64,000 nt of DNA from Myxococcota bacterium (GTDB taxonomy: Bacteria; Myxococcota; XYA12-FULL-58-9; JALHOP01), in assembly GCA_022842935.1 (NCBI GenBank), contig JALHOP010000007.1, forward strand, positions 77,592 through 141,591, given 5' to 3'. The notes beneath the pieces were generated by a model. It was given only the letters and a program-made list of their open reading frames with translations, had not been told where the DNA came from and did no database searches. Position numbers and translations under genes: made by a program. Shown in pieces: positions 24,319-41,431 of this stretch (position 1 is the stretch's first letter; each line of letters begins with the position of its first letter).

Positions 24319-24352
24319 GGTTTTAACGCCAAAACTAAGCTAGGGTAACGCC

Positions 24353-24802: not shown

Positions 24803-24845
24803 GCCCCTATTGTGTGGGCTCCGGCGCGTTTCGGGAGCCTTGACC

Positions 24846-25337: not shown

Positions 25338-25364
25338 GATTCGTGCCAAGGCTAGAGCGCCGGG

Positions 25365-26138: not shown

Positions 26139-27170
26139 ATGAACAAAGCCGTCTCGCATGACTTGAAGCTTGGGCGATGGCGACTTCATGCGCTCTGCCT
26201 TACCTGCCTCGTCGCGTTCAACGGTTGCGCTACCGAGTCAGCCCGCATCAACCCGCACGACGTCGCCGCGGCACTGCTCGGCGAGATGAACCCGGCCCCG
26301 ACCATCGACGACCTGCGTGACGCTCGGCAGCGCGCAAACCCTTCGCGCCGGCTGCTCCTCGAGCGGGTGCTTGCCGTTCTCGAGACAGCGCCCGCCGAGC
26401 GCACTGCCACGGGTGCTAGCTTCGATCGCTTCTTGCAGGTGCTCCGCGATCTCATCGACTCCGCGCAAGCGGACGTCGAGGCGCGCCGCGCATATGTTTC
26501 CGCCTTCGTGCAAGCGTCGATTTCACCGGCGCCGCCGCTCAGCGACCCAGCCGTGCTCGCTGACGAAGCCCTGGCGCACGCGCGACGCCTGGTTGCCGCT
26601 TTTCCCGGGGACGGCAAGAGTTATCGGGTGCTCGCCGAGGCGCTAGGCAACGCACAAGAAGACCAGGTCGCTGTGGGCGTGGCGTATAAGCAATGCGTGG
26701 CGCTCGCCCCGGCTGCGGGGTCGTGCGTGGTTCGGCTCGATGCCATCCGCGAGCGATTGCGGGCCCCGCATTGTGGCGGCTCCCAGGTCGCGAGGGCTCT
26801 GGTCTTTCATGCGGCGACCGATGACGGCCAGCTCAGCGAGGAGCCGCAGCTCACACTCGAGGCGACGCCAGTGCTCACCGCAGTTGATATCGCGACGATC
26901 GCGGTCGACCCGACGTCGGACCGGGCGCTCGACATCAGCATCACGCCAGCCGCGGCAAAGACGTTCGGTTTGACGACGGCGCGCCTTGCAGCCTCGCGTT
27001 CCTGGCTCGTCATGCGACTCGGCGAGGTGTCGGTCATCGCCGCACGCGTCACGGGTCCCATGCCCGACGGCGTGATGAGACTCCACACGGCGCGGGAGCC
27101 GGCGATCGACGTTCTACGCAGGCTGTGCGTGACACTCGAGCGGCGCGCCTTGCCACCTGAGCTGCAATAG
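26139..27170 (+). CDS. hypothetical lipoprotein
   Basis: Signal peptide with lipobox (VAFNGCATES) from the Met at MNKAV. Helical, TPR-like composition. Confidence 0.5.
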   Translation: MNKAVSHDLKLGRWRLHALCLTCLVAFNGCATESARINPHDVAAALLGEMNPAPTIDDLRDARQRANPSRRLLLERVLAVLETAPAERTATGASFDRFLQVLRDLIDSAQADVEARRAYVSAFVQASISPAPPLSDPAVLADEALAHARRLVAAFPGDGKSYRVLAEALGNAQEDQVAVGVAYKQCVALAPAAGSCVVRLDAIRERLRAPHCGGSQVARALVFHAATDDGQLSEEPQLTLEATPVLTAVDIATIAVDPTSDRALDISITPAAAKTFGLTTARLAASRSWLVMRLGEVSVIAARVTGPMPDGVMRLHTAREPAIDVLRRLCVTLERRALPPELQ

Positions 27171-27236
27171 CGGATCGCAGTGGGTGACTGCCCTGTGCCC
27201 TGAGCTCGGGGTGGAGGAAAGCGCGGGCAACCGCGT

Positions 27237-29423
27237 TCAGTGACCCTGTCCGCAACGGCTGCAGACGTGGGCGCGTCCTTCGAGACTCATGTCGCCGTCG
27301 CTCGCCGCGACCAGACGACCATTGCGGTCGAAGACCAGCGAGCCGGCGACAGCAGCCAAAATTTCGTTCGGCTTGCCAAAGCGGACGCGGGTGAAGCCAT
27401 AGCCGTCGGTGATGCGCTCGAGCTCGACCACGCCTTCGGCGCTCGTCCAGCCACCGACGCGCGCGGCAAGCGGGCCCTGACCACGCCGAGCAGAATCGAC
27501 GTCGCCGATGGTTGCGACGGGGAGGTCGCGGGTGATGCGCGGAGTGGTGTCAGCGGCGAGGAGGCCCCGTTCCCGCAGGATGCTCTCGAAGCGCGCAACG
27601 GACTCGGGCGACTCGGTTTCGCGCGCGCCGCGCAATAGAGCAGCACCGATATCGTGCAGGGAGCCGCCGTTCTCGGGCATGAACAGCATCGCGGCGTGTA
27701 ACGTGCTCGCGCTGACATCACGCACCCGTTGCACACTGGCGACCGGGTCGGTGGCGCCACGCGCCGCGTCGGACGCCTCGCGAGCGAAGTGCTCGTAGAG
27801 AGCACCCGAGATGATCCGTGAAACATAGTGGTGCTCACCGGCTCGGCTGCCGTCTGGCACTGGCGGGTTCCCGGATGCCGCCGGATCGAGCCCCGCGATG
27901 TCGCTGACGCGAAGCACGCTCGCGGCGTCACGCAGCGCTTGGTTGCCGTCGTCGGCTGGGTCGCGCGTGCTCGAAGCGATGGTGCGCGCGAGTTGTTCGG
28001 CGATACGAGAGACAGAGTTGCTACGGGTGAGATCGCCTTCCGTCTCGGCGAGGGCCGCACGAATCACCTCGGGAGAGTCGAACGCGGTGAGAAGCGCGAC
28101 CGAGTCGCCATAGGCCTCGTGCATGGCGCGCCCTGGCGCCGAGGAGAACATCGCTGGCATCAGCGTCGCGAGCGCCGCGTGACCCGCCTCATGGCTGCCT
28201 ACGAAGCGATCTTGAGCGAGTCGAACGAGCTGCCCGGTGAGTGGCCGGATGCGCGCGATCTCGAACCCCGCCCGCATGAGGTCGCCGCCATAGCGCGCGC
28301 GCGCGCTGAGGGTCAGAAATCTGTCGATGGGTAGAGGCTCTTCACCCGAGGGCGGCCTGGCAAAACCCCCAAAGAGCCTGCCCGCGAGGCCTCCGTTGGT
28401 TTGGCGCGGGTCAGTGATCGTCTCTCGCGCCCGCTCCGCGGTGAGGAGGCGCTCGACCTCGGCGACGTCGTCACGGCGGGCGGCGTCGACGATGGCGCGC
28501 AGCGCGGCAGCTTGCGCCCGCACTTCGCGCAAGCCGGCGGGATTGAGCTCGGGGCGACTTTCGGCGGAGAGGCGCGACTCTGTCTCGGAGACGGCACTCT
28601 CGCGCTCAGCGAGGGCGTGCTCGAGGAACGCGACGCTCGAGCCGTCGAGCGGCACCAGCCGCCCGTCCCGGACGTTACCCAGCGAGCCGAGTTGCACTTC
28701 ACGTGTGCCGCCAACGAAAAACGCGTTCAGCTCCACGCTGCTCGAGCCGACAAACGCGTTGGGGCGCACCGTGAGCTGACCGCCATCGCCCCAAGGGATG
28801 GGGCGCCGTGCCGCGCGCTCGGCCAAGGTGATGGTCTGGTTCGCGGCATAAAACGCGGTGGTCTGAGCCGTGTCCACCTCTGGGGCGTCGAAGTGGCCCT
28901 CGGCGTTGGCGGTCACGGGTGCGACCTGGCTCGGCTCGGTGATGACGTTGGTGGTGAGCAGGCCGATGAGCGGCAGCTGCGCAAGACCCGGGATGTTCGA
29001 CTCGGCCGTCTTGATGTCGCCATCGACGGCGATGCGCACACGCGGACCTTCGAGGAGCGAGGGCGCGTTACGCGTGCAATAAAAGGCGCTGCCGGGGAGG
29101 CTCGCAACCGTGGCTGGCCGACTTCCGTCGTCTTGGTGGACCCGGAGGTTTACCCCCGGGGTGGTGCAGATCGGCGGCCGCAAGGCGCCCGCTGAGCCTC
29201 GGGTGATTGGGGGAACACCGAACGGGAGCCCCGGTAGATTCACCTCGGGTCTCTGAACCTCGCGCTCGGGGTTGCGCACGTCGGTGGGGGCTGCGCCTTC
29301 GCCTGCACCTGCAAGGGCGGCACGGGAGGGGATACGGGTCGGCGCGATTGGAGTCACTTGCCTCGCATCCTCTCTGGTGCGCGATACACGCCACCTAGTT
29401 TCGTTCAGGATGTTTATCGGCAT
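27237..29423 (-). CDS. M4 (thermolysin-like) zinc metalloprotease homologue
   Basis: HEAGH (HExxH) motif followed about 20 residues later by HEAYGDS, which matches the thermolysin xEAxSD third zinc-ligand motif. No obvious N-terminal signal peptide. C-terminus ends CSRCGQGH. Start uncertain; the only Met is at 29423. Confidence 0.55.
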   Translation of the reverse strand: MPINILNETRWRVSRTREDARQVTPIAPTRIPSRAALAGAGEGAAPTDVRNPEREVQRPEVNLPGLPFGVPPITRGSAGALRPPICTTPGVNLRVHQDDGSRPATVASLPGSAFYCTRNAPSLLEGPRVRIAVDGDIKTAESNIPGLAQLPLIGLLTTNVITEPSQVAPVTANAEGHFDAPEVDTAQTTAFYAANQTITLAERAARRPIPWGDGGQLTVRPNAFVGSSSVELNAFFVGGTREVQLGSLGNVRDGRLVPLDGSSVAFLEHALAERESAVSETESRLSAESRPELNPAGLREVRAQAAALRAIVDAARRDDVAEVERLLTAERARETITDPRQTNGGLAGRLFGGFARPPSGEEPLPIDRFLTLSARARYGGDLMRAGFEIARIRPLTGQLVRLAQDRFVGSHEAGHAALATLMPAMFSSAPGRAMHEAYGDSVALLTAFDSPEVIRAALAETEGDLTRSNSVSRIAEQLARTIASSTRDPADDGNQALRDAASVLRVSDIAGLDPAASGNPPVPDGSRAGEHHYVSRIISGALYEHFAREASDAARGATDPVASVQRVRDVSASTLHAAMLFMPENGGSLHDIGAALLRGARETESPESVARFESILRERGLLAADTTPRITRDLPVATIGDVDSARRGQGPLAARVGGWTSAEGVVELERITDGYGFTRVRFGKPNEILAAVAGSLVFDRNGRLVAASDGDMSLEGRAHVCSRCGQGH

Positions 29424-29862
29424 GCTGACGCCGATGGTGCGTGAAAGTGCAAAGGGCTATAGTCGCCAGTCTGTGGCGTTCGTTCGCGTAGCATCACGTG
29501 GCAGCAGCATGTGGCCGACGCTCCGGCACGGCGACACCTTGCTCGTCGACAACATGGCGCCGCCCGCCGTTGGCGACATCGTCGTGCTGCGAGCGGGTGA
29601 GGGGAGCTTTATCGCCCACCGTCTGGTGGCCATGGCAAACGGCCTGGTGCGTTGCACGAATGCCCGCGGCGAGCCCGACCCCTGGGTCAGTCGAGACCAT
29701 GTGTTCGGGCGGGTCGCCTGTGTCGAGCGCGATGGGCGCTTGCTCGCGGTTGGGCGCGAACCGCCAAATGTGCGTATCCTTTGGGCGTTGCGTTCGAGCT
29801 ATGGTCTAGCGCGACGCATCGCGCATCGCGTGCGCAGGAGCCTTCGTGATCGCCAAGCGTAA
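29410..29862 (+). CDS. S26-family signal peptidase of the ER/archaeal (SipW-like, Ser/His) type
   Basis: Catalytic Ser box GSSMWPTLRHGDTLLVD, then GDIVVLR. A His (IAHRL) sits where bacterial type-I SPases carry the general-base Lys, as in Sec11/SipW-type enzymes. Start approximate; Mets are available at 29410, 29422 and 29434. Confidence 0.6.
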   Translation: MFIGMLTPMVRESAKGYSRQSVAFVRVASRGSSMWPTLRHGDTLLVDNMAPPAVGDIVVLRAGEGSFIAHRLVAMANGLVRCTNARGEPDPWVSRDHVFGRVACVERDGRLLAVGREPPNVRILWALRSSYGLARRIAHRVRRSLRDRQA

Positions 29863-30121
29863 GTCACATGTCGTCGCGCGCCAGGTCGACGACGAAGCCG
29901 TGCTCGTGCCCATCCGCAACGACGCGTCGACGCCGCTCGCCATTCACGCCTTGGGGCCGGTCGCCGCTTTCGTATGGGGATTGTTGGATGGGGCGCGGGC
30001 GAGCGATGTCATCGCGGACATGGTGAGCGACGAGTTCGAGGTCGACGCGGCCACGGCGCGCGTTGACGTCGCGACCTTCTTGACCGAGCTCGAGGCTGCG
30101 GGTCTCGTGGAGGTCACATGA
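29846..30121 (+). CDS. PqqD-family protein (RiPP recognition element / peptide chaperone)
   Basis: Canonical PqqD/RRE pattern (VVARQVDDEAVLV...AAFVWGLLDGARASDVIADMVSDEFEVDAATARVDVATFLTELEAAGLVEV). Its stop overlaps the radical-SAM start (ATGA). Confidence 0.7.
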   Translation: MIAKRKSHVVARQVDDEAVLVPIRNDASTPLAIHALGPVAAFVWGLLDGARASDVIADMVSDEFEVDAATARVDVATFLTELEAAGLVEVT

Positions 30122-31230
30122 CCGACGTTGCCGCAAGCAAAGGTGACAATGGCGCTGTTCGTGACCTGTACCAGCGCGCGCTGCGGAAGCGGCGCATCCC
30201 CATGCAAGCGATCTTCGAGCTCACGTTGCGTTGCAACTTGCGGTGCGATCACTGCTACCTGGGAAGTGATCGCAAGCGTGACGAGCTGTCGACTGCCGAG
30301 GTCACGCGCATCCTCGATGAGCTCGCGGGTGCGGGGACGCTCATTCTCACGTTGACCGGCGGCGAGGTCATGCTGCGGCCGGACTTCGAAGACATTTATC
30401 GGCACGCCATCGCGCGCGGATTTTTGGTCAGCGTGTTCACCAACGCGACGCTCATCAAGCCTCGCCACGTCCAGCTGTTCAAGGAGCTGCCGCCACGCGT
30501 CGTCGAGGTCTCGCTGTACGGCTTGAGTGACGACGACTACGTCGACTTCACGCATGCGACGATCCCTTTTGCCGACGTCGACGCCAACCTGCGCGCGCTC
30601 AAGAGCGCGGGCGTCCATTTCGTCTTGAAGAGCGTCGCGACGGTCACGCTGGGTCCCAAGATCCGAGCCATGCGCGCCTACGCCGAAGCGCTCGGTGTGC
30701 ACTTCCGATTCTCGACGACAGTCTACGGCGCCAATGACGAGACGGCGCTTGCCGACCACGAGCGACCCTCGGCCGAGACAGTCTGCGACAACGAGCGCGG
30801 CATCGTGCCAGTCGAGAGCCCGAACCGCGTGCCGCTCCCAACTCTTCCGAATCGTGTCTTCAACTGCGGAGCGGGTCGCGTCGCCATGCACGTCGACCCC
30901 GAAGGCATCGCTTCGCGTTGTGGCATCGTTACGAGCGCGCTTGGCGCACACACCGACTTGCGCAAGGTTTCGGTGCGCGAAGCCTGGGAGCGATTGGGCG
31001 TTGGCCTCGACGACGAGCTGGCCGAGGGGCATCCGTGCCGCGACTGTGAGATTAGGGCGCTATGCCACCGGTGCCCTGCGACCTCGACGCCCGAGCAAGA
31101 GATCGCCATGTGCGAGACTGCGCATGCCCGGGCGCGCGAGCTCGACCTTCAGGTGGCGGCGGTAGCGCCGATGCGCCAATTCTGGCAACCTCGGGAAGAG
31201 TCGATCTTGAAGCGGAGATTTCGTGGCTGA
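30118..31230 (+). CDS. radical SAM / SPASM-domain peptide-modifying enzyme
   Basis: CNLRCDHC (CxxxCxxC) radical-SAM cluster motif. C-terminal SPASM Cys cluster (FNCGAGR...CRDCEIRALCHRCP). Confidence 0.85.
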   Translation: MTDVAASKGDNGAVRDLYQRALRKRRIPMQAIFELTLRCNLRCDHCYLGSDRKRDELSTAEVTRILDELAGAGTLILTLTGGEVMLRPDFEDIYRHAIARGFLVSVFTNATLIKPRHVQLFKELPPRVVEVSLYGLSDDDYVDFTHATIPFADVDANLRALKSAGVHFVLKSVATVTLGPKIRAMRAYAEALGVHFRFSTTVYGANDETALADHERPSAETVCDNERGIVPVESPNRVPLPTLPNRVFNCGAGRVAMHVDPEGIASRCGIVTSALGAHTDLRKVSVREAWERLGVGLDDELAEGHPCRDCEIRALCHRCPATSTPEQEIAMCETAHARARELDLQVAAVAPMRQFWQPREESILKRRFRG

Positions 31231-31390
31231 CAGCAACCATCCGGCGCGCAAGCGCAAAGCCTATCAGCCACCGAAGCTCGAGACCGTCGAGGTCGTCGCC
31301 GAGGAAGCGCTGCTCGCTCTCTGCGCTTTCGGTGGTGGAACGCCCCAGACCGTCATGCAGGGCGCCCCCTGCGAGGTCTGCAAGAGTTGA
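31223..31390 (+). CDS. candidate RiPP precursor peptide (55 aa, not in the ORF track): VADSNHPARKRKAYQPPKLETVEVVAEEALLALCAFGGGTPQTVMQGAPCEVCKS
   Basis: GTG start overlaps the radical-SAM stop (GTGGCTGA) and is preceded by GCGGAG. It sits directly between the maturase and the kinase. Charged N-terminal leader-like half, a Gly-Gly-Gly junction, a core with three Cys and a C-terminal Ser. Confidence 0.5.
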   Translation: MADSNHPARKRKAYQPPKLETVEVVAEEALLALCAFGGGTPQTVMQGAPCEVCKS

Positions 31391-31421
31391 CGGGTGGGCG
31401 CCGCTCGCGTTTGTAGCGGGC

Positions 31422-32255
31422 GTGCGTGACATTGCTTTTGGGCCCATCGCTCTGCGCATCGCCGGAGACCTCGCGGCTGTTCGCTGGCCGCTCGGGGCCG
31501 ACGACGTGCAGGTCGCTCCGCGGGTAGGCGCGAAAGTCGTGCACACCGAGCTCGTCGACGACCTACCGCCGCTCGCGAACCCGACCATCGACACGGGGGT
31601 GTGGCGCGCCGCTGCCTCGGGAGACGGCACGCGCTTCGCAATCACGGTTCCTCCTGACGCTCGCGTCGTCGCCGATTTTCACTGGGGTACATCGATGGTT
31701 TTGCGCGTTGTTCGCGATTTCATCGGCTTCGACCGCGCCCCCTGGTTCGACATCCTCGTACAGCTTGCGGTGGCCGAGATGGCGCCTTCCTGCGCAGGCT
31801 TGGCGCTCCATGCGGCCTGCCTCGAGATCGGGGGTCGCGCTGTACTCCTGTGTGGGCGTTCGGGGGCAGGCAAGACCACGCTCGCTGGCCGCCTAATCCG
31901 TGCGGGGGGGCATCTGATGAGTCATGATCGAACAATCCTGTTCGGAAGCGGCGCATGGCGTGCCGTTTCGACTCCCTGGGGACACGATGGAAGGTTGGCG
32001 AGCGCCGAGCGCGAACGGGATGTCGGCGCTGTCTTGTTTCTCGAGCAAGCCCCCGTCAACAGTAGTGAACGACTGACCGGCGTGCGTGGTATGGCGCGCG
32101 TTGGGTCGGTGGTGCTCGGAGCCCGGTCTGCCAAAGCGGTTATGAGCAAAGCAATGGAAGTGGCGGAGCACCTCGTGCGTGAGGTGCCCTGCCACGTCGT
32201 GCGTTTGACGAACGACGAGCGAGCGACGGAACACGTGCTGGAGTTGTTGCGATGA
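31422..32255 (+). CDS. HprK-like P-loop kinase (HPr kinase C-terminal domain homologue)
   Basis: LLCGRSGAGKTTLAGRLIRAGGHLMSHDRTILF matches the HprK C-domain pattern GxSGxGKS...GHxLxxDD. Start placed at the first in-frame GTG after the precursor stop. The ORF-track frame extends upstream over the precursor and radical-SAM gene and is unlikely to be real there. Confidence 0.6.
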   Translation: MRDIAFGPIALRIAGDLAAVRWPLGADDVQVAPRVGAKVVHTELVDDLPPLANPTIDTGVWRAAASGDGTRFAITVPPDARVVADFHWGTSMVLRVVRDFIGFDRAPWFDILVQLAVAEMAPSCAGLALHAACLEIGGRAVLLCGRSGAGKTTLAGRLIRAGGHLMSHDRTILFGSGAWRAVSTPWGHDGRLASAERERDVGAVLFLEQAPVNSSERLTGVRGMARVGSVVLGARSAKAVMSKAMEVAEHLVREVPCHVVRLTNDERATEHVLELLR

Positions 32256-35203
32256 GATTCGCAGTTTTGGTGATTGTGGGCTCGGCCCTCCTGGCGAGTA
32301 GCGCAAACGCCGCCTACATCGCCAACATCACCATCGACGGAAATGCCGCAGACTGGAGCGGCATGTATCAGTTTCGTGACCGCAACGAGACGACCCAGAC
32401 TGGTACCGACATCCCCGACCGCTACGATGTCGACACCGTCTACGTCGCGAATGACGGCACGTACCTGTACTGGGCGATCAACACGTACGGTGCGATCAGC
32501 GGTAACCTCTCATGGCGCATCTACGTCGACCCGAACAACGACACGGCTTCGGGTGGCGGCTACGGCCAAGACGACCGCTACGTCGAGTTCGATACCAACA
32601 ACGGCACCTGCCAGGCAGTGACCGTCCACGACGCCGACAACAATGCGGTGCGCAACCCTGCCATCGGGTGCGGGAACGGCGCCAACATCAACGTGGCTTT
32701 CAGCGGCACCTTCATCGAGGGGCGCATCTTGCTTTCGCGCCTTTTCACGACGGTCCCCACCGGCGGCAACCTCAACATCGGCGTCCTCGTGCAGGTCATT
32801 CCGAACACGGGCAACACGGCGACCGAGCTCGCGCCGGGGCAGCCGCTTCCGTCGTTCATCGACTACGACAATCGTGGCACTCTGGTCCCCACCTTTGTCC
32901 GCGTCCGCGGACTGACCGCCGAAGCAGCTGAAGGTGGCGTACTCGTGCGTTGGCGCACGAGCGCTGAGTACTTCAGCGCCGGTACCTGGGTGGTCCGGGC
33001 GAGCGGCGACGACTGGGTGCCCGTAAGTGGCGAACCTTCCGCGACACAGAACCAGGCGACCGGCGACAGTTACGCCGTGGTCGATGCCAATGGAGGGCCG
33101 GGGGACATCTACGCGCTCGTCGAAGTCGACAGCCGCACTATCGTGCGCGTCTTCGGGCCCGTGACGGCCGTGAAGAGCGCCGTGACCTTGCCCACGCGCT
33201 CACAGCGTCTCGCCAGCAACCTGACGAGCAACGCCCGTCGCATCGCGTCCCTCGATCAGCGCCTGCGCGTGCGCACCGCTGCCCTGGACAACATCCTGAG
33301 TGGCGGCCCGCTCCCCGGGCGCTTCCCGCAGCTCGACGTCGATGTAACCCGCGAAGGTCTATTCGTCGTCTGCGATAGCGATACGCTACGTTATGGTGGC
33401 GTGCCTGCGAAGATCACGCGCGGCGCCGAGGTCGTACGTGGCTTTGCGGTGAGTACGCCGTGCGCGGGCCTTGGCTTCTACGCGCCGGCTCCGAGCTCGC
33501 CCTACGCGCCGTTCGACGTCTACCGCGTGCAACTCGCGGCCGCGCGCAACCTCTCGCTCATCGACGCGCCCCTCGTGACGACGTACGACGGCCCCGTATC
33601 ATTGGCAACGCTGTCCACGCTCGTGACACCGCGCCGCTATCTCGACATGCGCGACGGGCAGCCCAACCGTTTCTTCTGGAGCTACGCCTCGACCTCGCCA
33701 AGCGCTCCCGTCGACCTTCCCGCGATTCCGGGTTACGCCGACATGACCGTCGACGTGCATCCGCTCTCTGGCGGCGCGACGCACACCCTCGTGGTTGCGA
33801 CCGATCGCGAGCTTGGTCGCTACACGGTCGGTGACGGTTGGAGCCGAATCGACTTCACCAACCTGGCGGTGAACGGCGCTCCGGCTCTCACCTTCGTGGT
33901 CGAAGCAGAACAAGGCGTCATCGAGACGGTCTTGCTCGCCGACGCTACCGTCCGCTATCGCGGCGAGCCTGCCCAGGCCGAAAACGGTGTGCATTTCGGC
34001 GCCGACGGTGACAGCTGGGTCGGTGTCCGAGGCGGCGAAGGTTTCGCCTTCGATGTCACGCAACCGCGCGACCCAAGCCTCCTCGTCGTCGCCCCATACG
34101 CGAACGGCACCGTCGTACACACGCAACCCGAGACCCGCGATGTCTTCATCGCCAAGACCTTCACGAAGCTCCAAGCCGTGCCCACCCTCGTCGATGCGTT
34201 CATTGACGAGCCGGGGAGCGGCGCCGAATACCTAGTTCTCACACCGGCCTCGCTCGTGGACACCGCGCGTGAGCTCGCACAGCTGCGGGCCGAAGAGGGG
34301 ATGAGCACAGCGGTGCTCTCCTACGAGGCTGTCTACGCGCGTTTCACTGGCTCGAACCCCGACCCGACGGCCGTCGCGAAGCTCCTCGATTGGGCCGCTG
34401 TCCGCTGGAGCGTCGCACCGCGCTACCTCGTGCTCGTAGGTAGCACGAGCTCGGACCCGTATGGCTATACTGGGTCGCAGCGGCTCGCCGACGCGCCCAT
34501 CGCCGAGAGCTTGGACCCCGACTTTACCTACCGGCGCTTCAGTGACCGCGACCTCACGGGCTCGCATCAGGTCGCCGTCGGGCGCATTCCTACCTCTGAC
34601 GCTTATGAGCTTGGCCGCTACGTCGAGAAACTCCGCGCCCACCGCGAGCGGAGCGCAACGGGCGTCTGGTCAGTACTCGCTGGGGCCTCGACCCCCGATG
34701 AGCCCTCGTATGCTGGCCTCGTCAACAACATCGCGGCGCAGGTCGCCGAGTCGGTGACCATCGATCGCTTGGACGACGCAACCACCGTTGACCTCGTGAA
34801 TGCATGGGGCGCGGCCGACGTCATTGCCTACGCTGGTCACGGCGATGCCGAGTCGTGGGCAGACGACGTGCTCTACACCGAGCTTGCGCCAAACCTCGTG
34901 ACGGAGCGGCCACCCGTGACCCTTTCTGCGGCTTGCATGGACGCAATGACCACCAGCGCCAACGGAGGCCTCGCCTGGTCCTTGGTGTCCGCTGAAGTGG
35001 GTCGCGGTAGCATCGCAGCCATTGCGCCAAGCAGCATCATCGAGCCTATCAGGGCCTCTGCGTTCCTCGGACGGGCGGCTGCAGCCATCGCGCACGGTGA
35101 GGCGGCGCGCTGGGGGGATGCCTGGTTGCTCGCGCAGATGAGTGATACGAGTGTCGCCGCGCGGTCGATGGTGCTCATCGGCGACCCAGCGCTCAGCCCA
35201 TGA
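32252..35203 (+). CDS. secreted C25 (gingipain-like) cysteine peptidase family protein, 983 aa
   Basis: Sec signal peptide (ALLASSANA-AY). C-terminal region carries VIAYAGHGD (His box) and TLSAACMD (Cys box) in the order and spacing seen in the C25 catalytic domain. Its ATG overlaps the kinase stop (ATGA). Confidence 0.55.
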   Translation: MRFAVLVIVGSALLASSANAAYIANITIDGNAADWSGMYQFRDRNETTQTGTDIPDRYDVDTVYVANDGTYLYWAINTYGAISGNLSWRIYVDPNNDTASGGGYGQDDRYVEFDTNNGTCQAVTVHDADNNAVRNPAIGCGNGANINVAFSGTFIEGRILLSRLFTTVPTGGNLNIGVLVQVIPNTGNTATELAPGQPLPSFIDYDNRGTLVPTFVRVRGLTAEAAEGGVLVRWRTSAEYFSAGTWVVRASGDDWVPVSGEPSATQNQATGDSYAVVDANGGPGDIYALVEVDSRTIVRVFGPVTAVKSAVTLPTRSQRLASNLTSNARRIASLDQRLRVRTAALDNILSGGPLPGRFPQLDVDVTREGLFVVCDSDTLRYGGVPAKITRGAEVVRGFAVSTPCAGLGFYAPAPSSPYAPFDVYRVQLAAARNLSLIDAPLVTTYDGPVSLATLSTLVTPRRYLDMRDGQPNRFFWSYASTSPSAPVDLPAIPGYADMTVDVHPLSGGATHTLVVATDRELGRYTVGDGWSRIDFTNLAVNGAPALTFVVEAEQGVIETVLLADATVRYRGEPAQAENGVHFGADGDSWVGVRGGEGFAFDVTQPRDPSLLVVAPYANGTVVHTQPETRDVFIAKTFTKLQAVPTLVDAFIDEPGSGAEYLVLTPASLVDTARELAQLRAEEGMSTAVLSYEAVYARFTGSNPDPTAVAKLLDWAAVRWSVAPRYLVLVGSTSSDPYGYTGSQRLADAPIAESLDPDFTYRRFSDRDLTGSHQVAVGRIPTSDAYELGRYVEKLRAHRERSATGVWSVLAGASTPDEPSYAGLVNNIAAQVAESVTIDRLDDATTVDLVNAWGAADVIAYAGHGDAESWADDVLYTELAPNLVTERPPVTLSAACMDAMTTSANGGLAWSLVSAEVGRGSIAAIAPSSIIEPIRASAFLGRAAAAIAHGEAARWGDAWLLAQMSDTSVAARSMVLIGDPALSP

Positions 35204-37107
35204 AACAGGTCCTCCCTGTTGTACTTCTAGTTTGCGTGTTCGCGGCGTGCTCCGGTGACGGGAGCGAGGCGCTACTGCGGGTCGACGCGCGCGGTGTCCA
35301 AGCGCTGCGCTCCGCGCTCGACCTCGCCACTGGTCGTCTCACCATCAACTGCACCGACGGGCGTCGGTTCGACGTACCGGTCGCGCTCGATGCAATCGAG
35401 CCGCCGGGGCAAGAGCTGACCGTGGCGGTCCCTGCGTGCGGCGATGCGCGCATCGAGTTCCAAATCCTTTCGGGCGTCGGCGTCCCCGAGCTACGGGGCG
35501 CGAACGACGCCGTCCTCGTGCCGGGCTTCGTGGATGTGGAGATCCCGCTCGGCTATGTTGGCCAGCTCTCACTAAGTCTTGCCACTGACTCGCTCGTCGA
35601 GAGCTGCGTCGCCGTGGTCGAGCGCACCTCACCCGATCGCGTCCTCGTCGAAAGCGCGCTCACGCTGACCCGCACCGAAGTGACGTCGCTCATCGTCCCC
35701 ATCGGTAGCTACGACGTCACGTGCGACGGCCGCATCGCCCAGACTCTCGTGAGCCCGGGCCTCAACGTCGACGTCGCCCTCATTGACCCGGTGCCCGGTC
35801 CGCGGCTCATCAGCACCACCCTGCAGCCGAGCTATCCGCCGACCACCGCGCGCATCGACGTGACCTTCACATTTTCGGCGCCGGTGACTGGTGTCGACGC
35901 GAGTAGCGTGAGCCTCGACAACGACGGCACCATCCAGGCCGTGAGCGGGAGCGGTTCGAGCTACACCGTGACCTTCAATGGCCTCAACATTGGCACTGAC
36001 TACATCGTCACCCTGTCAGCCAGCATCGTCGACAGCGAAGGTCTTCCCCTGGTCGGCGCTCCGCTCCGCCTGCCCTTCCGCATCCGCGCCAACGAATACT
36101 TCGTGTCGACAGCTGGCGACGACAGCGTCAACAGCGGCACCGACCCGACGAGCCCTTGGCGCAATATCGCGTTTGCGGTGGCCAGTGCCTCGACGCCCGC
36201 GCGCATCTACGTCGCCGCTGGTACGTATGACGAGCAGGTGTTTCTCGCCAGCGATGTCACCATCGAAGGCGGCTGGTCAGCGGACTTCGTGACACGCGAC
36301 CTTGCCACTAACGAGAGCCGTGTCCGCGCGAGCAATCAGACGGTCTTTTTCGGCAGTGTCGGCAACGCCGTTGTCGATGGGCTGACCATCGAAGCGACGC
36401 AGCCGCAGCAAGTCGTGGTGATGCAGAACGCCGATGCCACCTTGCGTAACTGCATCGTCACCGGAGCGGGAGGAACCTTTCCGACTGGCTATGGCGTGTT
36501 CATCGAAGGCCTGGGTCTACCGAGTCTCGTCAACAACGTCATCGCGGTGTCGGCGGGCTCTTCGAGCACCTACGCGGTCTTCGTTCAGAACGGCGGTAGC
36601 GCCCGCGTCATCCACAACACCATCGACGCGGGTGATCGTGGCATCGTCTCCGGTGTCTACCTCGACAGCGCCGCGGGCGACGTCAGCATCGTGAACAACC
36701 TCTTTGTTGGTGGCACCACCGTCAACACCCGCGTCGGCATCACCGGGGAAGCGCCTCCTACCGCCCTTGTGAACAACGCGTTCTCGGCCGAACACGATGA
36801 TGCGTATCGCAACGCCGCTGGCACCGGGCTTCCCATCGGCGCGGCCGGTGACTTCGGCTTTACCGCGCCGCACCGCTTTAGCGGCAACGTGCTCGTGGCA
36901 GCTACCGCAGCCTTGGTTAGCGGTGGCGACTACCGCAGCACACCCGACAGCTCACTCCAGATCGGCATTGACTCGGCGCCCGCGGATTGCGGATTCACAG
37001 ACACCTCCGCCTACCCGTGTTTCGGTCCGACGACGGACCGCTTGGGACAGGCGCGCGCGGTCCCGACGACGGTTGGTGCCTACGCGTCCGGTGCCGGAGC
37101 GCTTTGA
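35200..37107 (+). CDS. lipoprotein with right-handed parallel beta-helix (pectate-lyase-like) repeats
   Basis: Lipobox LLVCVFAAC. Repeated beta-helix rungs (NAVVDGLTIEA, LRNCIVTGAGG, LVNNVIAVSAG, VIHNTIDAGD, SIVNNLFVGG). Its start overlaps the preceding stop (ATGA). Confidence 0.6.
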   Translation: MKQVLPVVLLVCVFAACSGDGSEALLRVDARGVQALRSALDLATGRLTINCTDGRRFDVPVALDAIEPPGQELTVAVPACGDARIEFQILSGVGVPELRGANDAVLVPGFVDVEIPLGYVGQLSLSLATDSLVESCVAVVERTSPDRVLVESALTLTRTEVTSLIVPIGSYDVTCDGRIAQTLVSPGLNVDVALIDPVPGPRLISTTLQPSYPPTTARIDVTFTFSAPVTGVDASSVSLDNDGTIQAVSGSGSSYTVTFNGLNIGTDYIVTLSASIVDSEGLPLVGAPLRLPFRIRANEYFVSTAGDDSVNSGTDPTSPWRNIAFAVASASTPARIYVAAGTYDEQVFLASDVTIEGGWSADFVTRDLATNESRVRASNQTVFFGSVGNAVVDGLTIEATQPQQVVVMQNADATLRNCIVTGAGGTFPTGYGVFIEGLGLPSLVNNVIAVSAGSSSTYAVFVQNGGSARVIHNTIDAGDRGIVSGVYLDSAAGDVSIVNNLFVGGTTVNTRVGITGEAPPTALVNNAFSAEHDDAYRNAAGTGLPIGAAGDFGFTAPHRFSGNVLVAATAALVSGGDYRSTPDSSLQIGIDSAPADCGFTDTSAYPCFGPTTDRLGQARAVPTTVGAYASGAGAL

Positions 37108-37134
37108 CGCCGCGCTCGCGGCGGAGCCTGGCCG

Positions 37135-39564
37135 GTGCGAGCGCGTCGAACCTGTGCGACACTGCTATCGATGAGGCGAAGGCTCACACTGTTCGCGCTG
37201 CTGTCTAGTTGCTCGGTCGATCTCCAGATCCCGGATGCTGCGGACATCGCCTGCGAGAGCGACGATGACTGCCCATCGGGCTTCATCTGCGATGTGCGCA
37301 GTCAGTGCCGCAGCCCGGAGGTCGCGGCGCGCGGTGTCCCCGGGTTCGACATTACTCCGACGACCGTCACCGTCGGGGAGTCCGGCACGCCGACGGTCGT
37401 TAACGTGCGCCTCACCGCGCAGCCGACCGCGGCGGTCACTCTCGTGCTCGCGCCCGATGACGGCAGCGAAGCGTTCATCTCCAAGAATGTGCTGACGTTT
37501 ACACCGGAAAACTACAACATCGCTCAAGCAGTCACGGTCGTCGGCGAGCGCGACTGCCTCGCGGACGGGCCCATCGTCTCGCACATCCTGATTTCTCCGG
37601 CCCAGAGTCTGGACCCCGACTACAACGGCCTCGACGCGCCAGATCTGGAAGTCACCACCAACGACGACGTGCCTTCCGCGGGGATCGTGGTTACGCCTCC
37701 CAGCGGCCTCGAGACCAACGAGAGCGGCAACGTGACCCAGTTCACCGTCGTCGTCGCTTGTAAGCCCACGGCGGACGTTCATTTTACCCTGGCGTCGACG
37801 GACGAAACCGAAGGCACCATCACCACGACTGAGCTCACTTTCACGCCTGACAACTGGGCGGTCCCGCGCGTCATCAACGTAGCGGGCAAGGGTGACTGCG
37901 AAACCGACGGTGACGTCACCTATGCCGTCGATCTCGGTAGGGTCGCGAGCGACGACCCGCTCTACGCGGGCATCGATGCGCCGAACGTCGAGCTCGTCAA
38001 TCGTGACGTTGTTTTCGGGCGGGTCAACGTCTCGCCCAACAACGGCCTGCGGACCACCGAAGGCGGCGGGCAAGCGACGTTCTCGGTGACGCTCACTTGC
38101 GCGCCGAGCGCCAATGTCATCGTGCCGATTGGCACAGGTGACGGAAGCGAAGGCACTCCGGGCGCGACGACGAGCCTCACGTTTACTCCGGCCAACTGGG
38201 GCGAGCCGCAAGCGGTCATCATCACCGGCGTAAATGACTTCTACGACGACGGTAACATTGCGTACGCCATCACCACCGGCACGCTCAATAGCACCGACCT
38301 TGGCTTCAATGGGCTCGATCCTGTCGATGTCAGCGTTACCAACGAAGACGACGACACAGCGAGCGTCACCGTGACCCCGACCACCGGTCTGCACACGACC
38401 GAAGCCGCGGGCACGGCGCAGTTCAGCATTCAGCTCGGGGCCGAGCCCCTATCACCCGTGCAGATCGCCATCGCCAGCACCGACACAGCCGAAGGGACCG
38501 TCGTCGGCACCACGGTGACGATCGCCGACCGCAATCCACGTTTCATCACCATCACCGGCGTGAACGACCCGGTCGACGACGACAACAAGAGTTACACCAT
38601 CACGCTGGGCGACATCGTCAGCAGCGACCCCGCCTTTAGCGGCATGGCGGTGCCCGACGTCGCAGTCATCAACGACGACGACGACACCGCGGGATTCACG
38701 CGCTGGGAGAACGCTGTATACGTCACCGAGGCGGGCAGCACCGCGGACGTGCGGCTCAGTCTCGCCTCGAGGCCGAGCGCCGACGTCAATTGCGTGGTCG
38801 ACGACACGTTCAACGACAACGAGATCCGTGTGGGCACTACCGGTTCGGTGAACGTGACGTTTACGCCGGTGACCTACGGCCTGTTGCAGTCGGTGACCGT
38901 GACGGGGGTGAACGACGGCGTCGCTGATGGCCTCTCGAATCCGTTGCCTTCGGTCCGTACCCAGTGCACGTCCGCGGACCCAAAGTACAACGGCATGCAA
39001 TACTACGTGACAGCCTACACCATCGAGCCGGCCAGCTCGCGGCGCGTCTACCAGACCGCAACAGCGGGCTACACCGGCAATCAGATCGCGATCACCACGG
39101 CTGACACCATTTGTCAGAACAACAACCCCATCGGCAGCGGCACCTGGAAGGCGATGCTCACCTCGTCGGATCCTACGGCGCCATCGGCGTTGCGGCGCGC
39201 CTGCACGACGCCCAACTGTGTCAGCAGTAGTGAGAATCAAAACTGGGTCTTCAGGCCGGCCTTCACGTATTACTGGTCCGGTGTGAACGGCATCGTCGGC
39301 ACGACGAACGCCGCTGGCATCTTCACCGGCATGATCGATGGCACACCGCCTAGCTCGGGCACCGCAGGTTTCGCTGGCTACTGGACCGGCATGAGCGCCG
39401 ATTTCACGAACAACGCCAATTGCAACAATTGGTCGACCACCAGCGGCACGGGGTCGGTTGGTCTCGACCGCCAGTCCACTGTCGGCAACACATTCGGCTG
39501 GAATCCGGGCATCGCCACCTTCGACTGCACCCAGACCCATCAGCTGCTGTGCATCGAGCAGTGA
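37135..39564 (+). CDS. lipoprotein with roughly six tandem 95-aa Ig-like repeats and a C-terminal C-type-lectin-like domain
   Basis: Lipobox LFALLSSC. Repeating unit VTPxxGLxTxExGxxAxFxVxL...LTFTPxNWxxPQxVxVxGxxD. The C-terminus ...WNPGIATFDCTQTHQLLCIEQ resembles the end of C-type lectin folds. Confidence 0.6.
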   Translation: MRARRTCATLLSMRRRLTLFALLSSCSVDLQIPDAADIACESDDDCPSGFICDVRSQCRSPEVAARGVPGFDITPTTVTVGESGTPTVVNVRLTAQPTAAVTLVLAPDDGSEAFISKNVLTFTPENYNIAQAVTVVGERDCLADGPIVSHILISPAQSLDPDYNGLDAPDLEVTTNDDVPSAGIVVTPPSGLETNESGNVTQFTVVVACKPTADVHFTLASTDETEGTITTTELTFTPDNWAVPRVINVAGKGDCETDGDVTYAVDLGRVASDDPLYAGIDAPNVELVNRDVVFGRVNVSPNNGLRTTEGGGQATFSVTLTCAPSANVIVPIGTGDGSEGTPGATTSLTFTPANWGEPQAVIITGVNDFYDDGNIAYAITTGTLNSTDLGFNGLDPVDVSVTNEDDDTASVTVTPTTGLHTTEAAGTAQFSIQLGAEPLSPVQIAIASTDTAEGTVVGTTVTIADRNPRFITITGVNDPVDDDNKSYTITLGDIVSSDPAFSGMAVPDVAVINDDDDTAGFTRWENAVYVTEAGSTADVRLSLASRPSADVNCVVDDTFNDNEIRVGTTGSVNVTFTPVTYGLLQSVTVTGVNDGVADGLSNPLPSVRTQCTSADPKYNGMQYYVTAYTIEPASSRRVYQTATAGYTGNQIAITTADTICQNNNPIGSGTWKAMLTSSDPTAPSALRRACTTPNCVSSSENQNWVFRPAFTYYWSGVNGIVGTTNAAGIFTGMIDGTPPSSGTAGFAGYWTGMSADFTNNANCNNWSTTSGTGSVGLDRQSTVGNTFGWNPGIATFDCTQTHQLLCIEQ

Positions 39565-39705
39565 ACGGTGAGGGTCCCTCGGCGCCCGCGTTGCGCGAAC
39601 CGACGAGCCTCGGACCTGCTACGCCGACAGGGTAGGCACGGCAACCGCGTATAAACCCGCGCCGATACAGCACCACCTCAAACCTAGCGCTGGGAGTGGT
39701 GTGCC

Positions 39706-40413
39706 ATGCTTGAGCAGACGACAAATGCCGTGAGCGGCTGGAAAGACTTCCCGGTTTCGCGGCAAATCAAAGACGCCATCAGCGGACGCGATAAGGTCTC
39801 GTCGTCGAGTGATGACGTGCCCGCCGCGGAGCGTTGGCTCGCGTCCGCTCTAGCGTCCATGGGGTTCCGCAGCCAAGGCGCGGGCGTCGACGTCCTGTAT
39901 TTCCCCGCGACCAAGCAATCCAGCGCAACGCTTCGGTTTCACACTGAAGTCGCCGGTCCCGTTCAGGTCACCATCGACAACGTCGACCTGCGCCGCGGCA
40001 AGCTCAGCTTGAACGCCTACGATACGACCACGAAGCTCGCGTTGGCCTTCGTGGAGCGGGTCGTCGAACGGGTCATGAACGATACCAACGGGGCCAAGCA
40101 GGCCTTCACCATCAGCCTTCGTCCGATGGGCCACTACCCCGATATGTCCGTCGCATTCTTCGCGCAGTCGTTGAACAAGCAGTTCGACTACGTCTTCGAC
40201 GATCGATCGAGCTCTGGCACGGCGAACGCCAACTGGAACGGCGTCCTCGCTGTGACGCGCGGCGGCAAGCTCGTCGACGAAGCCAGCATCTTGAAGCAGG
40301 TCCAGGGTTTCGTGGCGGAAGTGCTGAAAAAAGATGCCGCGATCACCAAGCGGCGGACCGTCAACGCGCTGTGGGGCTACACCATGAGCGACGCGGTCGA
40401 GCCCAAGAAATAG
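39706..40413 (+). CDS. hypothetical protein
   Basis: ORF with no signal peptide and no motif recognised. Confidence 0.45.
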   Translation: MLEQTTNAVSGWKDFPVSRQIKDAISGRDKVSSSSDDVPAAERWLASALASMGFRSQGAGVDVLYFPATKQSSATLRFHTEVAGPVQVTIDNVDLRRGKLSLNAYDTTTKLALAFVERVVERVMNDTNGAKQAFTISLRPMGHYPDMSVAFFAQSLNKQFDYVFDDRSSSGTANANWNGVLAVTRGGKLVDEASILKQVQGFVAEVLKKDAAITKRRTVNALWGYTMSDAVEPKK

Positions 40414-40486
40414 CCTCGATGAATACCCCCGCCCTGGGCGTCCGTCTTTGACGCTACGTTTTCGAGCTTTGAGACGGCTCTCGACC

Positions 40487-41407
40487 TTAGTCGGCTTCTA
40501 CATAGCCCTGCTTGAGCAGCTTGTGCACGTCCATGATGACCGCGTGGTCGGACCGCGGGTCCTTGTCGAGCACGTCTTGGTAGTGGTCGAAGTTCATGAT
40601 CGACTGCAGCGTGTCGAGCTCGCTCTTTGACAGGTCGGAGAGCCGCGGCATCATCGGAATGCTGACAATGAGCTTCGCTTCGCCCGCCGGCAGGTCTTTC
40701 TGGATGCGGCGGATCTCGTCGACCTGGCGTAGCGCTTCGATGAGCACGCTCTCGGTGTTCTCGGTGAAGTTCTCCGGGAACCGCATGCTCTCGTCGATAG
40801 GCTCGAGCTGGAACGAGCCGGCGCTCCACGTCATCATGCGCGCGATCGCCTTCATCGCTGGCAATGAGAGGCCCTTGATGACGGCAGACTGAAGCTGACC
40901 GTTCTTGATGTAAATCTGCCCGTTGTTCGGCCCCTTGATGGTCAAGGCGCCGGACTTGCGGTTGGTGGCGAACAGCTGCAGCAAGTCGGGCAGCGGCACC
41001 TCTTGCAGGTCGCCACTCATGGTCGTCGACTCGCCCGCGCGGTTGCCCAGAGCCTGCATCATGTCTTTGACGGACTTGGTGTCGCGGCGCCCCATGTCGA
41101 GCGTCATCTCGGATTCATCGATGAGCTTGAGGATCGACGTGCCGATGAGGATGCGGTCGTTGCGTTTGAGCTCGGCGCGGCGGATTTTTTCGCCGTTTAC
41201 GAAGGTGCCGTTGGTCGAGCCGAGGTCGGTGATCGACAGTTGGCCGCTTGCGACCGTGAGCTTTGCGTGTTTGCGCGACACCATGTCTTCGACGAGCACG
41301 AGGTCGAGGTCGCTTGCGCGCCCGATGAGCAACTCACCGTCATCGGGGATTGGAAACTCTCCGCCTACATATTTGCCGGAGATGAACTTGAAGGCGTTTT
41401 TACCCAT
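40487..41407 (-). CDS. FHA-domain protein with a C-terminal DUF4388-like domain
   Basis: FHA core (LLIGRASDLDLVLVEDMVSRKHAKL...TDLGSTNGTFVNGEKI). The C-terminal segment GALTIKGPNNGQIYIKNGQL is typical of DUF4388. Confidence 0.7.
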   Translation of the reverse strand: MGKNAFKFISGKYVGGEFPIPDDGELLIGRASDLDLVLVEDMVSRKHAKLTVASGQLSITDLGSTNGTFVNGEKIRRAELKRNDRILIGTSILKLIDESEMTLDMGRRDTKSVKDMMQALGNRAGESTTMSGDLQEVPLPDLLQLFATNRKSGALTIKGPNNGQIYIKNGQLQSAVIKGLSLPAMKAIARMMTWSAGSFQLEPIDESMRFPENFTENTESVLIEALRQVDEIRRIQKDLPAGEAKLIVSIPMMPRLSDLSKSELDTLQSIMNFDHYQDVLDKDPRSDHAVIMDVHKLLKQGYVEAD

Positions 41408-41431
41408 GATCGATCGCGTGCCGTCCTAACC

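Follow-up and report, generated by a model that had tools for sequence, protein, structure and literature searches.

A predicted radical-SAM RiPP operon with a PqqD-type recognition element, an HprK-like protein and a linked C25 peptidase in a Myxococcota bacterium

A 64,000-nt stretch of DNA from a Myxococcota bacterium (GenBank assembly GCA_022842935.1, contig JALHOP010000007.1, positions 77,592 to 141,591 of the forward strand), referred to here as the window, carries a compact operon whose six core genes, g1 to g6, are likely to direct the biosynthesis of a ribosomally synthesised and post-translationally modified peptide (RiPP). The operon would represent an as yet uncharacterised family, widely distributed among uncultured bacteria, and it would act through the predicted steps described below. 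What is new is a predicted radical S-adenosylmethionine (radical-SAM) pathway that depends on a RiPP recognition element (RRE) and that has an unprecedented set of partners, of which the linkage to a C25 peptidase gene is the most unusual feature. The reading of this locus as a site of RiPP maturation, which was proposed in an initial annotation of the DNA, is supported by the domains of the encoded proteins, by a conserved precursor and by co-occurrence of the genes across phyla. All numbering refers to positions in the window, gene coordinates follow the most plausible starts, and domain assignments come from Pfam and NCBIfam profile searches.

The core genes belong to a run of eight consecutive open reading frames (ORFs) on the plus strand, all of which were verified as present in the window. 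The first gene, g1 (29410-29862, +), encodes a soluble signal-peptidase-I-like protein of the S26B, Ser/His type, which is the proposed leader peptidase. It overlaps by 17 nt with g2 (29846-30121, +), the gene of a discrete PqqD-type RRE, and g2 overlaps by 4 nt (ATGA) with g3 (30118-31230, +), which encodes a predicted radical-SAM/SPASM peptide maturase without an N-terminal RRE domain. An overlap of 8 nt (GTGGCTGA) joins g3 to g4 (31223-31390, +), the gene of the predicted precursor peptide of 55 amino acids. After a gap of 31 nt follows g5 (31422-32255, +), whose ScmC-family product has an HprK/P-like kinase fold and is the candidate for the peptide serine kinase. A further 4-nt ATGA overlap leads to g6 (32252-35203, +), whose product is a predicted secreted protein of 983 amino acids with a C-terminal cysteine peptidase domain of the C25 (gingipain/PorU-like) type. 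These six genes occupy only about 6 kb, which makes heterologous reconstitution practical.

In the proposed pathway, g2 would bind the 55-residue g4 peptide through its YxxPxL leader, as in the lasso B1 and LppB complexes, and the resulting complex would present the core to g3, which has no recognition domain. The radical-SAM enzyme would most likely form intramolecular cross-links at three conserved cysteines, of the sactionine or ranthionine thioether type. The g5 protein would phosphorylate a serine with ATP, most likely the C-terminal one, like the lasso-tailoring kinases PadeK, ThcoK and PsmK, and g1 would remove the leader in an RRE-dependent manner, as LppS does. The last step, which is the weakest of the scheme, concerns the C25 protein g6: outside the cytoplasm it probably acts on the product, or the product on it, through trimming to the final form or a sortase-like transfer.

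Conservation of the gene set and the precursor family

The arrangement of these genes is not a product of chance, as the set and its order recur in relatives at 79%, 70% and 48% radical-SAM identity. Homologues of g3 were found at 79%, 72%, 70% and about 50% identity. Both the 79% and the 70% relative carry genes for an S26-like protein, PqqD, a radical-SAM enzyme, a small ORF, ScmC, a C25 peptidase and a beta-helix protein. The 48% relative (GCA_043821645.1) carries S26-like, PqqD and radical-SAM genes, a 58-amino-acid ORF, and genes for ScmC and C25. Assemblies GCA_964484195.1 and GCA_034286235.1 are also among the relatives.

Beyond these relatives, a wider family was collected with a radical-SAM profile scan over one genome per species, which returned 80 loci at 26-45% identity. 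The groups represented are Planctomycetota, Chloroflexota, Omnitrophota, Nitrospirota, Acidobacteriota, Desulfobacterota, Verrucomicrobiota, Bacillota, actinomycetes and a Methanoregula. For the neighbour counts, all ORFs of the loci were searched with the window proteins and the neighbours were then clustered, giving 84 non-redundant loci; the counts are lower bounds, with many loci on short contigs and gene calls there made by a simple ORF scan. PqqD was a neighbour in 62 of the 84 loci, ScmC in 61, the S26-like peptidase in 54 and a recognisable precursor in 54. A C25 gene was present in 22 of the 84 and the gene of an MsbA-like ABC exporter in 24, and the two occurred together in a single locus (1/84). 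The initial annotation had proposed to examine the neighbourhood conservation of the radical-SAM, PqqD, HprK-like and small-peptide genes, and this quartet indeed recurs across phyla. A complete lack of co-occurrence, which was named there as evidence against the RiPP reading, is not what the 84 loci display.

The predicted precursor gene g4 starts with GTG, and a GGAG sequence lies 6-7 nt upstream of it. The leader of the encoded peptide contains Y14-Q-P-P17-K-L19, the core contains C34, C50 and C53, and the peptide ends in Ser55. No signal peptide was recognised on g4, unlike on the C25 protein g6, and g4 matched no NCBIfam precursor model. In comparison with the 79% relative (L002), 21 of 35 nucleotide differences fall at third codon positions. 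An orthologue is present in every close relative (L002, L005 and L008), each with YQ(P/R)P, EEALLA-x-C, APC-x-x-C and a terminal Ser.

An iterated profile search over all small ORFs of the related loci extended this group to 70 precursors in 58 loci. The family has a basic N-terminus, a [Y/W]x(K/P)Px[L/V/I] leader motif, an acidic EE-x-(V/L)L segment and a cysteine that usually stands in G-C-K, followed by a variable segment of 10-17 residues and C-x(2-6)-C; another 2-6 residues lead to a terminal Ser. The precursor alignment shows no variation at P17, C34 and C53, and at least 90% of the sequences retain C50. A collection of 5.8 billion proteins contained 256 gene-called homologues, unnamed or termed 'hypothetical protein' and none with a Pfam domain; exactly three cysteines follow the leader motif in 111 of the 119 that were listed. 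The C-terminal residue is Ser in 52 and Thr in 3 of 66 non-redundant locus-derived precursors, and it is Ser in 117 of the 119 listed database homologues, 91 of which end in Gly-Ser, counts that derive from related sequences, partly obtained with a profile that includes the C-terminus, and whose independence is overstated; the pattern is nevertheless evident. The small ORF is therefore not missing from homologous loci, a case that the initial annotation had counted as contrary to its reading; it is found in all close relatives and in 54 of the 84 loci, and 256 database proteins are homologous to its product. In the archaeal locus L050 (6985-8477), from a Methanoregula metagenome-assembled genome, four precursor genes with W-type leaders stand in tandem and encode peptides with longer, Cys-rich cores and no terminal Ser.

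Three further contigs, L089, L090 and L091, were reached through precursor homologues and not through the enzyme, and their unbiased Pfam annotation was precomputed. L089 carries C25, PqqD, radical-SAM, precursor and ScmC genes, then an S26-like gene, and L091 carries C25, PqqD, radical-SAM, precursor and ScmC genes; in both, C25 lies directly upstream of PqqD. L090 has PqqD, radical-SAM, precursor and ScmC genes followed by an S26-like gene, and no C25 gene. Within L091 (1-7615), the cassette is preceded by two C25 genes, one of which is an S8-C25 fusion, and a second, near-identical precursor copy (60 amino acids) lies between them. In L089 (8858-14984), a lasso-like gene set adjoins the C25-PqqD-radical-SAM-precursor-ScmC-S26 cassette. 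This set comprises Hpr_kinase_C, Transglut_core3, NTP_transf_5, a second PqqD, a 74-amino-acid ORF with the C-terminus ...PTS, and genes for a methyltransferase and an ABC transporter. The arrangement echoes the co-localisation of linear polyphosphorylated peptide (LPP) and paeninodin genes that is reported in Bacilli.

Proteins of the maturation pathway

The assignment of g2 as a PqqD-type RRE, made from the first inspection, agrees with a Pfam PqqD match at E 8.8e-15, and the top NCBIfam matches are lasso PqqD chaperones. The best matches in the PDB are the lasso protein TbiB1 (5v1u, E 2e-5) and LppB (9x8z, E 0.003). D74 and F78 of g2 align to D70 and F74 of LppB, where D70 hydrogen-bonds the leader Tyr and F74 divides two pockets (PMC13381572). 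D74 is kept in 55 of 62 g2 homologues; covariation of this residue with the leader type (Y or W) was tested and none was detected, the Asp being kept with both. The YxxPxL leader is the motif bound by this kind of RRE domain, as known from lasso B1 and LppB. The general features of discrete-RRE RiPP systems are present in the operon, namely a short precursor with a conserved leader and a variable core beside the enzymes, and a PqqD protein with the leader-binding pocket residues.

The g3 protein matches Pfam Radical_SAM with E 2.9e-23. In an alignment of 36 homologues, C39, C43 and C46 of the CX3CX2C motif are invariant, and C250, C268, C307, C310, C316, C319 and C332 are invariant or kept in at least 90%, which fits the seven-Cys SPASM pattern; database names of the homologues read 'radical SAM protein with 4Fe4S-binding SPASM domain'. 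The best NCBIfam match is the StsB sactipeptide maturase (82.8 bits, cut-off 625), the second is MftC (79.1, cut-off 265), and AlbA (58.2, cut-off 850), PqqE (58, cut-off 381) and SkfB (48.5, cut-off 300) are also found. Models of NirJ2, NirJ and AhbD score 78-79 bits, all far under cut-off. Sequence matches in the PDB are SkfB and PqqE. An AlphaFold2 (AF2) model with a predicted local distance difference test (pLDDT) value of 88 has SuiB, PqqE and SkfB as its nearest folds, with CteB also among the neighbours and anSME among the matches at E ~7e-12. The initial annotation had regarded a closest relationship of g3 to a non-peptide-modifying family as contrary evidence. The nearest proteins are the peptide maturases StsB, MftC, SkfB, PqqE and SuiB, with NirJ, AhbD and anSME only slightly lower, which makes this a weak criterion when taken alone.

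Matches of g3 to StsB, AlbA, SkfB and SuiB start near residue 100 of those proteins, so that g3 is without their N-terminal recognition domain of about 100 residues. Like PqqE and MftC, g3 would have to depend on the discrete PqqD protein. Thioether cross-linking is the leading guess for its chemistry, at somewhat short of an even chance, because cysteines are the sole conserved core residues apart from the C-terminal Ser.

An alternative view of g3 is that of another SPASM enzyme, of the heme/NirJ or sulfatase-maturase type, for which the small ORF would not be the substrate. The NirJ2, NirJ and AhbD scores, close to the 82.8 bits of StsB, and the anSME fold match are consistent with it. These NirJ and AhbD matches are nevertheless far below their cut-offs, no heme, d1 or sulfatase genes occur nearby, and in most loci the neighbours of the g3 gene encode a PqqD RRE and a conserved peptide with an RRE-binding motif. 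This view is thus extremely improbable.

It has also been considered that the peptide is a scaffold for a small cofactor or metabolite, similar to mycofactocin or PQQ, whose C-terminal C-x-x-C-x-x-G-S would be modified before a small product is excised. Mycofactocin precursors also have an invariant C-terminus, and in the present family the strongest core conservation is found at the extreme C-terminus and the last two cysteines. The combination of a discrete PqqD with an RRE-less radical-SAM enzyme is likewise the architecture of the PQQ and mycofactocin systems, and MftC is the second-best NCBIfam match of g3. On the other hand, the scores of 79 bits against 265 for MftC and 58 against 381 for PqqE are far from membership, and the neighbourhoods contain no conserved dehydrogenase or other cofactor-using enzyme. 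Many loci have an MsbA-like exporter or a secreted C25 protein, which points to a peptide product outside the cytoplasm, and several loci have multiple divergent precursor copies, which is typical of bioactive peptides. A cofactor scaffold is therefore distinctly unlikely, and the cross-linked peptide of the proposed RiPP pathway is preferred.

The g5 gene starts at GTG 31422 and encodes a protein of 277 amino acids. Its Hpr_kinase_C match is weak (24.3 bits), and precomputed Pfam records add ScmC (PF27840). An AF2 model of the protein (pLDDT 91.3) gives the HprK/P catalytic domain as the top Foldseek match (2qmh, 1kkl and 1jb1; E ~1e-6), followed by phosphoenolpyruvate carboxykinase. Invariant residues are H130, the P-loop G145-x-S147-G148-x-G150-K151-x-T153, and D169; the model accordingly places a P-loop together with His, Lys and Asp on the fold of the HprK/P C-domain. 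H130, K151 and D169 correspond to three of the four His-Lys-Asp-Asp residues of lasso-tailoring kinases. In lasso clusters, the target of the HprK-like kinases is the conserved C-terminal Ser of the precursor in its linear form, and the kinases require these four residues (PMC9266682). In the LPP system, LppK polyphosphorylates Ser3 of the core (PMC13381572). By analogy, g5 would have about an even chance of phosphorylating the near-invariant C-terminal Ser.

The initial annotation had compared the locus with a database-defined neighbourhood in which an HprK-related kinase is paired with a PqqD-family chaperone. This comparison is right only in a loose sense: the HPr-rel-A models TIGR04352 and TIGR04353 stay below their cut-offs, at 28.6 bits (cut-off 200) and 17.1 bits (cut-off 35), and Pfam ScmC is the better label for g5. 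Proteins of this kind are numerous. A profile built from 12 ScmC homologues of g5 matched 959 cluster representatives at E <= 1e-30 and 12,552 at E <= 1e-10 among 1.84 billion proteins.

For g1, the profile searches gave Pfam Peptidase_S24 at 27.8 bits, above the cut-off, S26 at 22.3 bits, and the NCBIfam archaeal signal peptidase I model at E 1.9e-5. The segments GSSMWPTL and IAHRLV align to GSSMEPTL and VAKRLI of signal peptidase I 4me8. The second alignment indicates that the catalytic Lys is replaced by His, a mark of the ER/archaeal type, and together with the profiles it bears out the earlier description of g1 as an S26 peptidase of the ER signal peptidase type. Among 49 g1 homologues encoded beside a radical-SAM gene, the Ser of GxSMxP is kept in 42, the His of HR in 48 and the Asp of (K/R)GD in 46; g1 of the window carries Glu at this last position. 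A functional model is available in LppS, a SipW-like Ser-His-Asp enzyme that cuts the LPP leader only when its RRE is present (PMC13381572). In g4, the predicted cleavage site lies near L33/C34, with a core of about 22 residues. The start of g1 is uncertain among ATG 29410, 29422 and 29434. A more distant start at TTG 29272 was rejected, as the longer ORF runs into a divergent 728-amino-acid gene ending at 29423, and the public annotation of the identical JGI contig (WGS set LNFM01, metagenome 3300002461) has a gene product of 150 amino acids here.

The C25 peptidase and the surroundings of the operon

The g6 protein contains a Peptidase_C25 domain at residues 660-982 (E 7.2e-33, 114.8 bits, cut-off 23), and it reaches 57 bits against a cut-off of 420 with the PorU sortase model NF033707. 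Its N-terminus, MRFAVLVIVGSALLASSANA, reads by eye as a Sec signal peptide, and several C25 homologues have N-termini resembling signal peptides or membrane anchors. The motifs G-H-(G/S/A) and (T/A)-C, present in g6 as YAGHG and SAAC, are conserved in C25 homologues with a complete C25 domain, and this pair reads as the catalytic His and Cys dyad of C25 peptidases. A PDB sequence search with g6 gave no match, and the catalytic motifs were judged from the alignment of neighbourhood homologues.

The distribution of C25 genes follows the type of precursor leader. Among 33 loci with a Y-type leader, C25 is found in 20, the ABC exporter in 5 and neither in 8. Among 18 loci with a W-type leader, the exporter is found in 10, neither gene in 8, and C25 in none. 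Where present, the C25 gene lies within about 5 kb of the cassette and mostly at less than 1.5 kb, in loci from Acidobacteriota, Nitrospirota, Desulfobacterota, Chloroflexota, Verrucomicrobiota, Planctomycetota and actinomycetes. In most loci it precedes PqqD, and in the window's clade it follows ScmC, which means that the linkage has survived rearrangement.

These observations bear directly on the possibility that only g1-g5 are functional together, with the C25 gene and the two lipoprotein genes behind it being unrelated neighbours that share a transcript. C25 was not found in 62 of the 84 loci, the lipoprotein genes are conserved only in close relatives, and shared ancestry alone could explain the translational coupling seen there. 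Against this stand the presence of C25 near the cassette, on either side of it, across several phyla, its restriction to Y-type leaders (20 loci against 0 of 18 with W-type leaders), and the preservation of the linkage despite changes of position. The co-occurrence data weigh strongly against this explanation, which is very unlikely, as they do against the view that g3 does not act on peptides.

A closer association can also be imagined, in which the modified peptide is a dedicated partner of C25, as a cross-linked subunit, an inhibitor or prodomain, or an activator, and not a free natural product. A precedent by analogy is QhpD/QhpC, in which a Cys-rich subunit of quinohemoprotein amine dehydrogenase is cross-linked by a radical-SAM enzyme. 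The close adjacency of C25 in 20 of 33 Y-type loci from several phyla would agree with such a role, as would the second precursor copy between the two C25 genes of L091 and the absence of an ABC exporter from C25 loci, with one exception among the 84. However, the same precursor architecture is found in loci whose fetched stretch contains no C25 gene, namely 13 of the 33 with Y-type leaders and all 18 with W-type leaders. In addition, g4 has no signal peptide and the C25 protein has one, so the two would be made in different compartments. A dedicated C25 partner is therefore unlikely, and the product of the RiPP pathway proposed here is preferred.

Within that pathway, C25 is probably a genuine partner of the Y-leader subfamily, in a role that 'export, then trim' describes incompletely. 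Were the two functionally coupled, the peptide could be the substrate of a sortase-like surface transfer, a regulator of the protease, or a product released by way of C25 and not of an ABC exporter.

Several observations weigh against the proposed pathway as a whole. C25 and the ABC exporter are nearly mutually exclusive, contrary to a simple order of export followed by trimming, and this near-exclusion argues for a more specific relationship of C25. No exporter was found among the genes flanking the operon, which leaves unexplained how a cytoplasmic product would meet a secreted C25 protein. NirJ, AhbD, MoaA and anSME score nearly as high with g3 as the peptide maturases do, and the chemistry of g3 cannot be read from its sequence. 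Residues 167-169 of g5 are S-H-D in the window's clade and S-D-D in distant ScmC proteins, the first Asp of the kinase motif being changed to His. Besides the relatedness behind the counts of terminal Ser, several precursors are without this residue, all four of L050 among them.

Downstream of g6, and overlapping it by 4 nt (ATGA), lies g7 (35200-37107, +), whose lipoprotein product combines a right-handed beta-helix with an Ig-like domain of the Big_5 family. Pfam matches are NosD, Beta_helix, DUF1565 and Big_5, and a lipobox-like VFAAC was read by eye. The secreted C25 protein and the beta-helix lipoprotein of the initial annotation were thus both recovered. After a gap of 27 nt, or 63 nt if the start is at ATG 37171, follows g8 (37135-39564, +), a lipoprotein gene with repeated modules and a C-terminal DUF1554 (E 2.7e-25), which also matches the LenF family weakly. 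A lectin label had been attached to g8 and is unsupported, the C-terminal DUF1554 being the only domain recognised. Homologues of g7 are found only in L002 and L005, and those of g8 only in L005-L007; among the 79%, 70% and 48% relatives, DUF1554 occurs only in the 70% one. Both genes encode clade-specific lipoprotein passengers outside the conserved core, and they are not counted as parts of the system because they are found only in the closest relatives. With these two included, the eight consecutive same-strand genes originally described are all found, and the statement that six of the seven junctions are overlaps or near-overlaps is a fair one, the count being five true overlaps and two short gaps.

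The flanks of the operon (20561-25337 and 40487-43276) are shared with the 79% and 70% relatives. The upstream flank contains Ppx/GppA, PrkA and a Usp-like gene, and the downstream flank contains FHA/DUF4388, TPR and BamD (YfiO) genes. The PrkA, FHA/DUF4388, TPR and BamD neighbours are compatible with an origin in Myxococcota, although they would not establish it by themselves. Two additional unannotated genes (26049-27170 and 27237-29423) are inserted directly upstream of the operon in the window's strain. The second of them (27237-29423, -) is a 728-amino-acid ORF that diverges from the operon and overlaps g1 in its long version. It has a zinc-protease-like HEAGH (HExxH) motif and no Pfam or PADLOC match; the identical JGI contig carries it too, whereas the 79% and 70% relatives do not. 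In promoter and terminator scans of 28800-40500, counts did not exceed those of shuffled sequence and were uninformative, and no Rfam family was found within 25000-41000. PADLOC gave only generic radical-SAM (viperin) and P-loop matches, so the operon is not a known defence system.

Comparison with known systems

None of the eight proteins comes near the cut-off of an NCBIfam equivalog model, and full-text literature searches found no paper on a RiPP combination of radical-SAM, PqqD and HprK-like kinase, and the genome-mining papers found make no mention of kinases or signal peptidases. The statement of the initial annotation that no characterised RiPP class matches the operon therefore holds. 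It is possible, if doubtful, that the operon is the founding example of a new RiPP class, consisting of radical-SAM cross-linked peptides that carry a phosphorylated C-terminal Ser and follow the leader logic of lasso and LPP pathways, with one large subfamily functionally coupled to a secreted C25 peptidase.

Sactipeptide and ranthipeptide systems (AlbA, SkfB, StsB, CteB and PapB) share with the operon a radical-SAM/SPASM enzyme and a Cys-containing precursor. Whereas AlbA/SkfB/StsB-type maturases carry their own N-terminal RRE, g3 is without it and is paired with a discrete PqqD. The g3 protein has the CX3CX2C motif and the SPASM cysteines, and it stays below the curated thresholds of the sacti- and ranthipeptide maturases. 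To our knowledge, no characterised member of these systems has a kinase, a signal-peptidase-like protein or a C25 partner. In the mycofactocin and PQQ systems, likewise, g3 falls short of the MftC and PqqE equivalog cut-offs and g4 has no matching precursor model.

For the C25 protein, the closest comparison is with PorU, the C25 sortase of type IX secretion, and with gingipains, which share with g6 the C25 domain with conserved His and Cys motifs and secretion, predicted in the case of g6. No type IX secretion genes were seen in the examined part of the window, and no counterpart was found for the linkage of C25 to a peptide-maturation cassette. This raises the question of why a secreted C25 is genetically locked to a cytoplasmic peptide-maturation cassette, in alternation with an ABC exporter.

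SynChlorMet (SCM; ScmC, ScmD, ScmE and ScmF) is a database-defined, uncharacterised cassette of NCBIfam/TIGRFAMs with the same logic of PqqD, radical-SAM/SPASM and ScmC, and no mention of it was found in the searched literature. The window proteins do not reach its equivalog models (ScmC 25.7 against 125, ScmD 25.9 against 100, ScmE 46.5 and ScmF 47 against 400), and only the broader Pfam ScmC family (PF27840) is matched. SynChlorMet has two radical-SAM genes, whereas the window has one. The loci with W-type leaders were considered as canonical SynChlorMet cassettes, and this was rejected, as they are also far below the cut-offs. The peptides described here supply a candidate precursor family for ScmC-centred cassettes.

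Paeninodin-type lasso peptide systems (PadeK, ThcoK, SyanK and PsmK) are related in a different way. Their HprK-like kinase acts on the linear precursor, and the extremely conserved C-terminal Ser is the phosphorylation site (PMC9266682); a near-invariant C-terminal Ser is also found in the window family. Both systems have a [Y/W]xxPxL-type leader, read by a B1/PqqD protein in the lasso systems (PMC9266682) and presumably by g2 in the window. According to Pfam, the lasso cyclase (C) and the B2 transglutaminase-like peptidase are in none of the eight window proteins, and a radical-SAM enzyme stands in the place of the cyclase; the class-defining macrolactam can thus not be made by this operon.

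Among characterised systems, the LPP family of Bacillota (LppA, LppB, LppK and LppS; Popov et al., Nat Commun 2026, PMC13381572) comes closest. It shares with the window a discrete PqqD-type RRE, with its Asp and Phe pocket, and a YxxPx[V/L] leader. LPP has an HprK-like kinase that acts on a precursor Ser, and the window has the HprK-fold protein g5 with the same proposed role. The LPP leader peptidase is a soluble archaeal/ER-type Ser-His-Asp signal-peptidase-like enzyme, and g1 is of the same type by its motifs. These shared traits are present in the window as motifs and folds only. The differences are equally clear (PMC13381572): LPP clusters have no radical-SAM enzyme, contain an NTP transferase and an exporter, and are reported only from Bacillota, whereas in the window a radical-SAM/SPASM enzyme accompanies a Cys-rich core and C25, with neither an NTP transferase nor an exporter in or beside the operon. 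The target of LppK is Ser3 of the core, whereas the conserved Ser of the window family is C-terminal. If the proposed pathway is correct, a large and unstudied family of peptide-modification clusters exists in mostly uncultured phyla, uniting radical-SAM/SPASM cross-linking with the kinase and signal-peptidase-like logic of lasso and LPP pathways. For three of the operon's components, the work on LPP provides an experimental precedent (PMC13381572).

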